Shown: in pieces, positions 9,653-9,707 of the stretch | Numbering within the stretch: the first letter of the stretch is position 1 | Layout of the letters: each line of letters opens with the position of its first letter | IMG/VR virus record: IMGVR_UViG_3300032030_000030 | Coordinates: 40,697 to 104,696 of that record | Direction: 5' to 3' (one strand) | DNA from: a virus | Lineage: Duplodnaviria; Caudoviricetes | Length of the DNA: 64,000 nucleotides | Position numbers and translations under genes: made by a program | The notes under the pieces: generated by a model | The model's database searches: none | The model's input: only the letters and a program-made list of their open reading frames with translations | Told to the model about the DNA's origin: nothing

Positions 9653-9707
9653 GGCACCATGAAGAAGCCTCCTCGTTGGCGGTGCTGGATAATCAACTAA
9701 TTCTTCA
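9653..9707 (+). ncRNA. Minimal HDV-like (theta-type) self-cleaving ribozyme
   Basis: P1 GGCACC/GGTGCT with G1-U wobble; P2 TGAAGAA/TTCTTCA; P3 GCC/GGC; L3 TCCTCGTT; GG after P1; tiny P4; J4/2 AACTAA with candidate catalytic C9697. Confidence 0.85.

Follow-up and report, generated by a model that had tools for sequence, protein, structure and literature searches.

A sheep-gut crAss-like phage almost certainly carries a genuine 55-base HDV-like ribozyme. We put the probability at about 70% that co-transcriptional self-cleavage of this ribozyme between positions 9652 and 9653 defines a hairpin-capped, cyclic-phosphate 3′ end for an ncRNA of ~680 nt, which, judging from syntenic relatives, appears to be the most conserved element in this part of the ruminant crAss-like phage genome. 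Support for the 3′-end role comes from the joint presence or absence of ribozyme and ncRNA in relatives, from a different ribozyme at the same junction in one of them, and from contig ends at the predicted cut.

Genome and organization of the locus

The window (the whole 64-kb stretch of DNA analysed) comprises bases 40697-104696 of a complete 104.7-kb (104,696-bp) IMG/VR virus record. In its major capsid protein the phage shares 74-76% identity with Bacteroides phage crAss001 and phage cr85_1 (Steigviridae), and the sequencing runs that contain the window stretch originate from sheep, cattle and goat gut. Under table 11 the long ORFs stay open, in agreement with the standard code claimed in a preliminary description of the locus. 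The features that matter here are listed below by window position and strand.

8255-8854: NADAR gene; the ncRNA lies between it and the terminator at 9882
8949-8966 (+): promoter-like motif TCANNNACNNTCYATTGA ahead of the ncRNA, its promoter function predicted
~8974-9652 (+): ORF-free ncRNA of ~680 nt, the predicted 5′ cleavage product; 5′ end approximate, core at 9020-9415
9624-9647 (+): 3′-terminal hairpin of the ncRNA, then a 5-nt tail, AUCAU, to the cut
U9652/G9653 (+): predicted self-cleavage site, its position set by the HDV-like fold
9653-9707 (+): minimal HDV-like (theta-type) ribozyme, 55 nt; descriptor match with C9697 as the predicted catalytic base
9708-9891 (+): structured 3′ module with hairpins at 9723-9780 and 9782-9816, then an intrinsic terminator
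9840-9882 plus U-run (+): intrinsic terminator

The nearest tRNA to the ribozyme is tRNA-Asn at 11704, 2.0 kb off, which bears out the earlier figure of about 2 kb. The phage encodes no RNA ligase (including the DRB0094 type) and no CCA-adding enzyme, and the looser of our descriptors (below) found no ribozyme at any of the phage's own tRNAs in the whole 104,696-bp genome; a tRNA-style maturation pathway is therefore not indicated. An abiF RNA motif (Rfam RF03085; 11782-11818, + strand; 47.9 bits against a gathering score of 37) lies within the phage tRNA array, with tRNA-Asn on one side and tRNA-Met on the other.

A compact double pseudoknot

The preliminary description had claimed a full nested double pseudoknot within 55 nt, and direct reading and an independent descriptor scan agree on it. 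Its elements, all on the + strand, are as follows.

9653-9658 with 9681-9686: P1, 6 bp, the first pair being the wobble G9653-U9686
A9659: J1/2, 1 nt
9660-9666 with 9701-9707: P2, 7 bp, the pseudoknot helix between the 5′ part and the 3′ end
9667-9669 with 9678-9680: P3, 3 bp, GCC/GGC
9670-9677: L3, 8 nt, U-CC-UCGUU
C9671 and C9672 with G9688 and G9687: P1.1, two pairs
9689-9696: L4, 8 nt, with no P4
9697-9700: J4/2, CTAA (CUAA), with C9697 at the catalytic position

The segment thus has the features of HDV-like ribozymes: a P1 that starts with G-U, a P2, a P3/L3 with U-C-C, a two-pair P1.1 and a J4/2 cytosine. The G1-U wobble and the J4/2 cytosine that had been pointed out are G9653-U9686 and C9697, the first base of CTAA, and the HDV-like fold upholds the predicted cut 5′ of G9653. 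An extension of P3 that would give a 7-nt L3 was considered and discarded, as the geometry forbids it.

The match at 9653-9707 is the sole one to the descriptor in the genome (both strands, 104,696 bp). When the catalytic C in the descriptor was swapped for A, G or U, there were zero matches genome-wide, and a far looser descriptor returned, besides 9653-9707, just two low-complexity matches, both lacking the catalytic C. The descriptor with C was matched three times in 573 dinucleotide-preserving whole-genome shuffles, or ~0.005 expected per genome. No Rfam HDV-type covariance model scored above its gathering score at the ribozyme, the best match being to CPEB3_ribozyme at 9641-9707 with 15.1 bits against a gathering score of 35; a P4 is probably expected by the Rfam HDV-type models, which would explain the low score of this P4-less form. 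The missing Rfam match is what a chance resemblance, with no ribozyme at all, could appeal to. We give that explanation very little weight given the shuffle expectation, the conservation of the fold in a relative and the family covariation described below, and because a ribozyme subgroup among the catalogue entries of PMC10879173 considered here has exactly the same loop and junction sequences. Overall, 9653-9707 is very probably an active ribozyme.

Covariation and the helix before the cut

Related ribozymes were collected with two patterns, both of which left P1 and P2 open. The first, run on metagenome contigs, fixed P3, L3, P1.1′, the L4 length and J4/2; in 5 of 73 matches P1 and P2 were fully complementary and the loop was ATA(A/C)CCAA. 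The second, run on IMG/VR, fixed P3′, P1.1′, L4 as ATAAYCAA and CTAA, and 20 of its 28 matches fold completely with complementary P1 and P2. Because P1 and P2 were absent from the search patterns, the complementary helices in the matches are the independent part of the covariation test.

When the 22 distinct family sequences were aligned, standard pairs filled 92% of cells, versus 28-54% with slid partners, a percentage that is partly circular since the sequences were pre-filtered for pairing. Changes on both sides were seen in 13 of 18 pairs, and the observed covariation was reached in none of 500 shuffles. It is strong in P1 and P2, with all seven P2 positions covarying; the P3, L3 U-C-C and P1.1 features are invariant among the 22 members. 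The 8-nt L3 of the window copy is also found in six or more independent members whose helices covary. On the other side of the search, no HDV-like motif was found in 475 kb of flanks around TerL relatives (IMG/VR, ≤64% identity) or in the syntenic parts of crAss001 and cr85_1.

Three of the 22 family members (L133-L135) have the ribozyme exactly at a tRNA 3′ end, and 12 have a hairpin 0-6 nt before the cut with an energy in the lowest 5% of same-locus 40-mers (~1 expected by chance). It is a rule of the family that a stable helix ends 0-6 nt before the cut, whether this is the acceptor stem of a tRNA or a hairpin. The window copy obeys the hairpin form of this rule (9624-9647, then AUCAU) but is without flanking ORFs, whereas an ORF starts ≤30 nt after the ribozyme in ~13 of the 22 members. 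Four crAss-like contigs (L043, L079, L084, L112) have the order ~570-aa gene, hairpin, ribozyme of the ATAAYCAA subgroup, with a ~330-aa gene beginning 16-21 nt after the ribozyme; the ~570-aa gene of L079 weakly matches the crAss major head protein and adjoins a portal gene.

The upstream ncRNA

No credible ORF lies between NADAR and the terminator at 9882 on either strand; the longest stop-to-stop frames in the ncRNA region are ≤59 aa on the plus and ≤96 aa on the minus strand. A minus-strand ORF of 90 aa at 9147-9419 was rejected as a gene, having no homologue. At gathering score, Rfam models in the window matched tRNAs and abiF only, with ROOL, GOLLD and the like falling short, and at E values up to 5 the region 8850-9900 had no relevant match for the ncRNA. 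Likewise, blastn with 9100-10100 against 50,697 phage records gave no match, and IMG/VR contained no exact copy of a 25-mer taken from the ncRNA core.

Among relatives, six compensatory pair changes fall in predicted stems, and near the 3′ end of the ncRNA there is a further one (CCGC/GCGG to UCGC/GCGA). The fold z-scores of 8970-9652 are -2.7 and -2.8 on the two strands and so do not identify the strand; it was assigned from the G-U counts and the compensatory changes. The last stretch, 9613-9652, folds at -11.3 kcal/mol, in the lowest 5% of background 40-mers. Taken together with the conservation described in the next section, these changes make the RNA at ~8974-9652 a structured, selected RNA with no Rfam family.

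The promoter-like motif TCANNNACNNTCYATTGA ahead of the ncRNA occurs in four copies in the window, at 4616-4633 (+), 8949-8966 (+), 11266-11283 (-) and 63377-63394 (+, with one mismatch), versus 0.36 expected, and is a candidate phage-specific promoter. Three copies stand ahead of a 201-aa gene, the ncRNA and a minus-strand 202-aa gene, and one follows a 3100-aa ORF. An exact 11-mer, TAATAAAACGC, occurs both at 8928-8938, before the promoter-like motif, and at 9269-9279, just before a hairpin at 9277-9303.

Ribozyme and ncRNA in syntenic relatives

A search of IMG/VR with the NADAR protein gave a single distant match, in a 517-kb contig; four syntenic relatives (L140-L143) were found through NADAR homologues. 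Identities to the window were as follows.

7708-8241, ORF before NADAR: 75-83% to relatives
8255-8854, NADAR gene: 68-78% to relatives
9020-9415, ncRNA core: 95-96% in L140, L142 and L143
9583-9652, ncRNA 3′ end: 94-97% in L140 and L142

The ncRNA core is thus 95-96% identical where the flanking genes are just 68-83%. The 3′-terminal hairpin at 9624-9647 is identical in L140 and L142. The motif TCANNNACNNTCYATTGA is kept in L140 and takes a variant form in L141 and L143.

L140, a 105.9-kb contig, has the same ribozyme straight after the same hairpin. This orthologue is 94.5% identical; its differences are limited to J1/2, a single base of L3 and a single base of L4. The L140 segment 6159-6771, ~610 nt, corresponds to ~140 nt in the window (9413-9555), which suggests that the part of the ncRNA between its core and 3′ end is variable or carries an insertion.

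L142 stays identical to the end of the hairpin, and at the junction where the window ribozyme begins it has another HDV-like ribozyme, of 66 nt, with P1 GAUACU/GGUAUC, P2 GUCUUA/UAAGAC, a small P4 and CUAA; its P1.1 has one C-G pair and a U-U mismatch. This variant is followed by a tRNA-like element, an ORF and then the 3′ hairpins common to the relatives. The element, in L142 3976-4610, resembles a T-arm and acceptor, and the Rfam tmRNA model matches it weakly at 4082-4150 (19.7 bits, E = 2.7e-4); ARAGORN found no tRNA in 3976-4610. The ORF, of ~109 codons, occupies 4281-4607, ahead of the common 3′ hairpins.

In L141 the stretch equivalent to 8977-9715, and with it both ncRNA and ribozyme, is absent; the promoter-like motif and the 3′ module are retained. 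A 56-codon ORF (L141 5752-5922) fills the slot between the motif and the common 3′ hairpins. From these sequence comparisons the slot appears to behave as a cargo cassette, and the patterns in L140, L142 and L141 indicate that it is the ncRNA, rather than the downstream module, that the ribozyme travels with. The link to a long ncRNA instead of a tRNA, put forward in the preliminary description, is supported by these relatives and by the RNA contigs described below.

The downstream module

The earlier account had the ribozyme releasing a ~235-nt structured downstream RNA that ends at a terminator. The RNA itself is as described: the terminator is real, and the predicted 3′ product is ~236 nt. 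The 3′ module has an MFE of -79.7 kcal/mol (z = -11.1) with 13 G-U pairs, compared with just -49.7 for the minus strand, and is thus strongly structured on the plus strand only. Two ORFs of 5 codons (9712) and 13 codons (9742) lie inside its hairpins and were treated as spurious. Beyond the module, the stretch 9894-10430 holds convergent terminators with a common stem (ACAGCAAGG/CCTTGCTGT), between which lie a tract of ~110 nt consisting almost only of A and G (9990-10100) and, in three copies, ACTTAGCAAG.

The module is 80-88% conserved in L140, L141 and L142, of which L141 has it without a ribozyme. Release of the downstream RNA as the role of the ribozyme therefore did not hold up, and the retention of the module even where there is no ribozyme ties the ribozyme to the upstream RNA. 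A broader version of the idea is that the ribozyme serves whatever RNA lies downstream (236 nt here, an mRNA elsewhere), giving it a structured 5′-OH end and insulating it from the upstream transcript and from 5′-end-dependent decay. The ORFs that start close behind the ribozyme in many family members speak for this, as do the tRNA-like element and 109-codon ORF behind the L142 variant and the exceptional structure of the 188 nt that follow the window ribozyme. This reading fits many family members but not the window locus, where no credible ORF follows the ribozyme, where the fragment downstream of the cut is rarer than that upstream in RNA runs, and where comparison with relatives shows the ribozyme staying with the ncRNA hairpin while the downstream neighbour varies and, in L141, needs no ribozyme. 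We regard it as unlikely here and favor formation of the ncRNA 3′ end.

RNA and contig ends at the predicted cut

The RNA evidence consists of assembled contigs from essentially one sample, X2 and X3 being sheep-gut metatranscriptome runs of that same sample; runs X6-X24 are left out of it, as are the parts of 9838-10004 without RNA contig cover. Record 5 of X2 begins at 8974, 8 nt past the promoter-like motif, and spans 8974-9284 at a depth of 78. Depth in X2 is then 9 over 9322-9652 and 2.8 over 9680-9831, against 3.6-3.8 for NADAR; X3 has a depth of 12 at 9263-9635 and nothing over 9671-10004. RNA depth near the site is thus 9-12 upstream versus 0-2.8 downstream. The ~9-fold fall between 9284 and 9322 suggests that most transcripts may end before they reach the ribozyme, and TAATAAAACGC with the hairpin at 9277-9303, located at this drop, may mark the internal end of a shorter, more abundant RNA.

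Record 6 of X2 matches 9322-9652 with zero mismatches and then continues with 29 unrelated letters. Such a tail is roughly the overhang of a k = 31 assembly if molecules end there and reads enter adapter. No RNA contig crosses 9652/9653, whereas DNA contigs of X4 and X5, from related populations, do cross the site. In addition, a JGI contig (L145, sample 3300024337) reproduces 7477-9649 exactly, after which its sequence (L145 2174-2276) comes from genome position 1599 (+). The two parts have no sequence in common where they meet, at a breakpoint 3 nt short of the cut and 2 nt past the hairpin; L145 represents either a cDNA chimera that arose at the end of an RNA or a genome rearrangement.

The contig ends at 9649-9652 are hints of cleavage in vivo. 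Strain polymorphism could break contigs there too, since this junction is exactly where relatives exchange modules. Such polymorphism, or nuclease trimming at the hairpin, would explain the ends if the fold were an inactive or weakly active relic of module shuffling, a proposal to which the contig-based nature of the RNA evidence, the module exchange at precisely this boundary, the deviation of L3 from the tested theta descriptor and the U-U mismatch in P1.1 of the L142 variant all lend something. We nonetheless consider a relic improbable. Every catalytic and structural position is intact in the window copy, and the changes in the L140 orthologue are confined to positions that vary across the family. 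The 8-nt L3 is that of HDV itself as well as of the family members counted above, and a second, differently sequenced ribozyme at the same junction in L142 is not what would be expected of a relic.

Proposed mechanism and its significance

In the mechanism that we favor, transcription would start just past the promoter-like motif at 8949-8966 and head to the terminator at 9882. Once transcribed, the 55-nt ribozyme would fold into its double pseudoknot and act constitutively, with C9697 and a bound Mg2+ catalysing attack of the U9652 2′-OH on the adjacent phosphate. The ~680-nt ncRNA would be left with its conserved hairpin, a short tail and a 2′,3′-cyclic phosphate, a defined and presumably exonuclease-resistant end that may stabilize it, while the ribozyme and the common 3′ hairpin/terminator module would be detached as a less abundant 5′-OH fragment. 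This arrangement would be analogous to a tRNA-trailing theta ribozyme or a laboratory HDV cassette, with the hairpin-capped ncRNA taking the place of the tRNA acceptor stem. The benefit of a precise ncRNA end is conjectural, and the enzymes that might act on it, an RNA ligase and a CCA-adding enzyme, are missing from the phage.

Kienbeck et al. left open the function of thousands of non-tRNA theta ribozymes, and the present locus offers for one of them a specific role that can be tested, namely production of the 3′ end of an ncRNA that is both abundant and conserved. The helix-before-cut rule, drawn from 22 members, unifies the tRNA and non-tRNA cases. The ribozyme type and its non-tRNA placement are already published; its proposed use on an ncRNA 3′ end is new, as are the identification of the partner RNA, the swap of ribozymes at a fixed junction and the helix-before-cut rule itself. 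Tentatively, and at somewhat less than even odds, these results may be extended to a new class of large, strongly conserved crAss-like-phage ncRNA matured by a swappable HDV-like cassette, with theta-type ribozymes as universal 3′-end makers for helix-capped phage RNA (tRNA, capsid mRNA and ncRNA) and a cut site that doubles as a recombination boundary between RNA modules.

Comparison with theta, HDV and other HDV-like ribozymes

Theta ribozymes were defined by Kienbeck et al. 2024 (PMC10879173), who showed that four cleave in vitro and that C-to-U mutants are inactive. In phage databases 58% of theta occurrences abut tRNAs and 42% do not; most of these other 526 are situated in non-coding DNA, and they "likely serve unknown biological functions" (PMC10879173). 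The non-tRNA placement noted in the preliminary description is therefore right for the window ribozyme, though not unusual for theta ribozymes. Its theta label stands in part. The window copy has the minimal form (no P4, an 8-nt L4, a 1-nt J1/2 and CTAA as J4/2) and the loop of a subgroup, ATAAYCAA, already listed among the non-tRNA theta ribozymes in the part of Supplementary Data File 2 of PMC10879173 considered here. Among the entries of PMC10879173 covered here, the loops ATAACCAA, ATAATCAA and ATACCCAA occur at least ~210 times on the non-tRNA side and not once on the tRNA-associated side. The final theta descriptor, on the other hand, has an L3 of U, CC and the four bases NCGY, 7 nt in all (PMC10879173), and the 8-nt L3 of the window misses it by one extra base. 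A five-base token after U-CC appears in none of the final-motif entries of PMC10879173 covered here, but five-base versions do occur in the covered part of its broader first-motif list, HDV itself included.

Non-tRNA theta ribozymes of the ATAAYCAA subgroup share with the window copy the P4-less architecture, the L4 and J4/2 sequences and, in some entries, P1 too. Like it, they reside in non-coding DNA of gut Caudoviricetes, in sense with neighbouring genes. They have a 7-nt L3 and no assigned function, in contrast to the 8-nt L3 and the conserved ncRNA partner in the window. tRNA-associated theta ribozymes likewise cut directly 3′ of a stable helix end, and the upstream RNA is the product, but they cut within 5 nt of a tRNA 3′ end, whereas the window copy has no tRNA within 2 kb and a standard-code genome. 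The genomic HDV ribozyme has in common with the window copy the double pseudoknot, an 8-nt L3 of the pattern U-CC-UCGYU, P3, a P1.1 of two C-G pairs and a C-N-A-A J4/2; it differs in its long P4 and in acting on rolling-circle replication products.

HDV-like ribozymes also stand at the 5′ ends of R2 and L1Tc retrotransposon RNAs, and drz-Fpra-1 lies upstream of glmM. As proposed for the window, an HDV-like fold in these systems processes a longer transcript co-transcriptionally; their functional product is the downstream RNA with the ribozyme, whereas the window comparisons point to the upstream RNA. In the laboratory, an HDV ribozyme placed after an RNA gives it a homogeneous 3′ end. The logic of that cassette is the same, a sequence-independent cut directly 3′ of an RNA, but the cassette is engineered and the window copy is natural.
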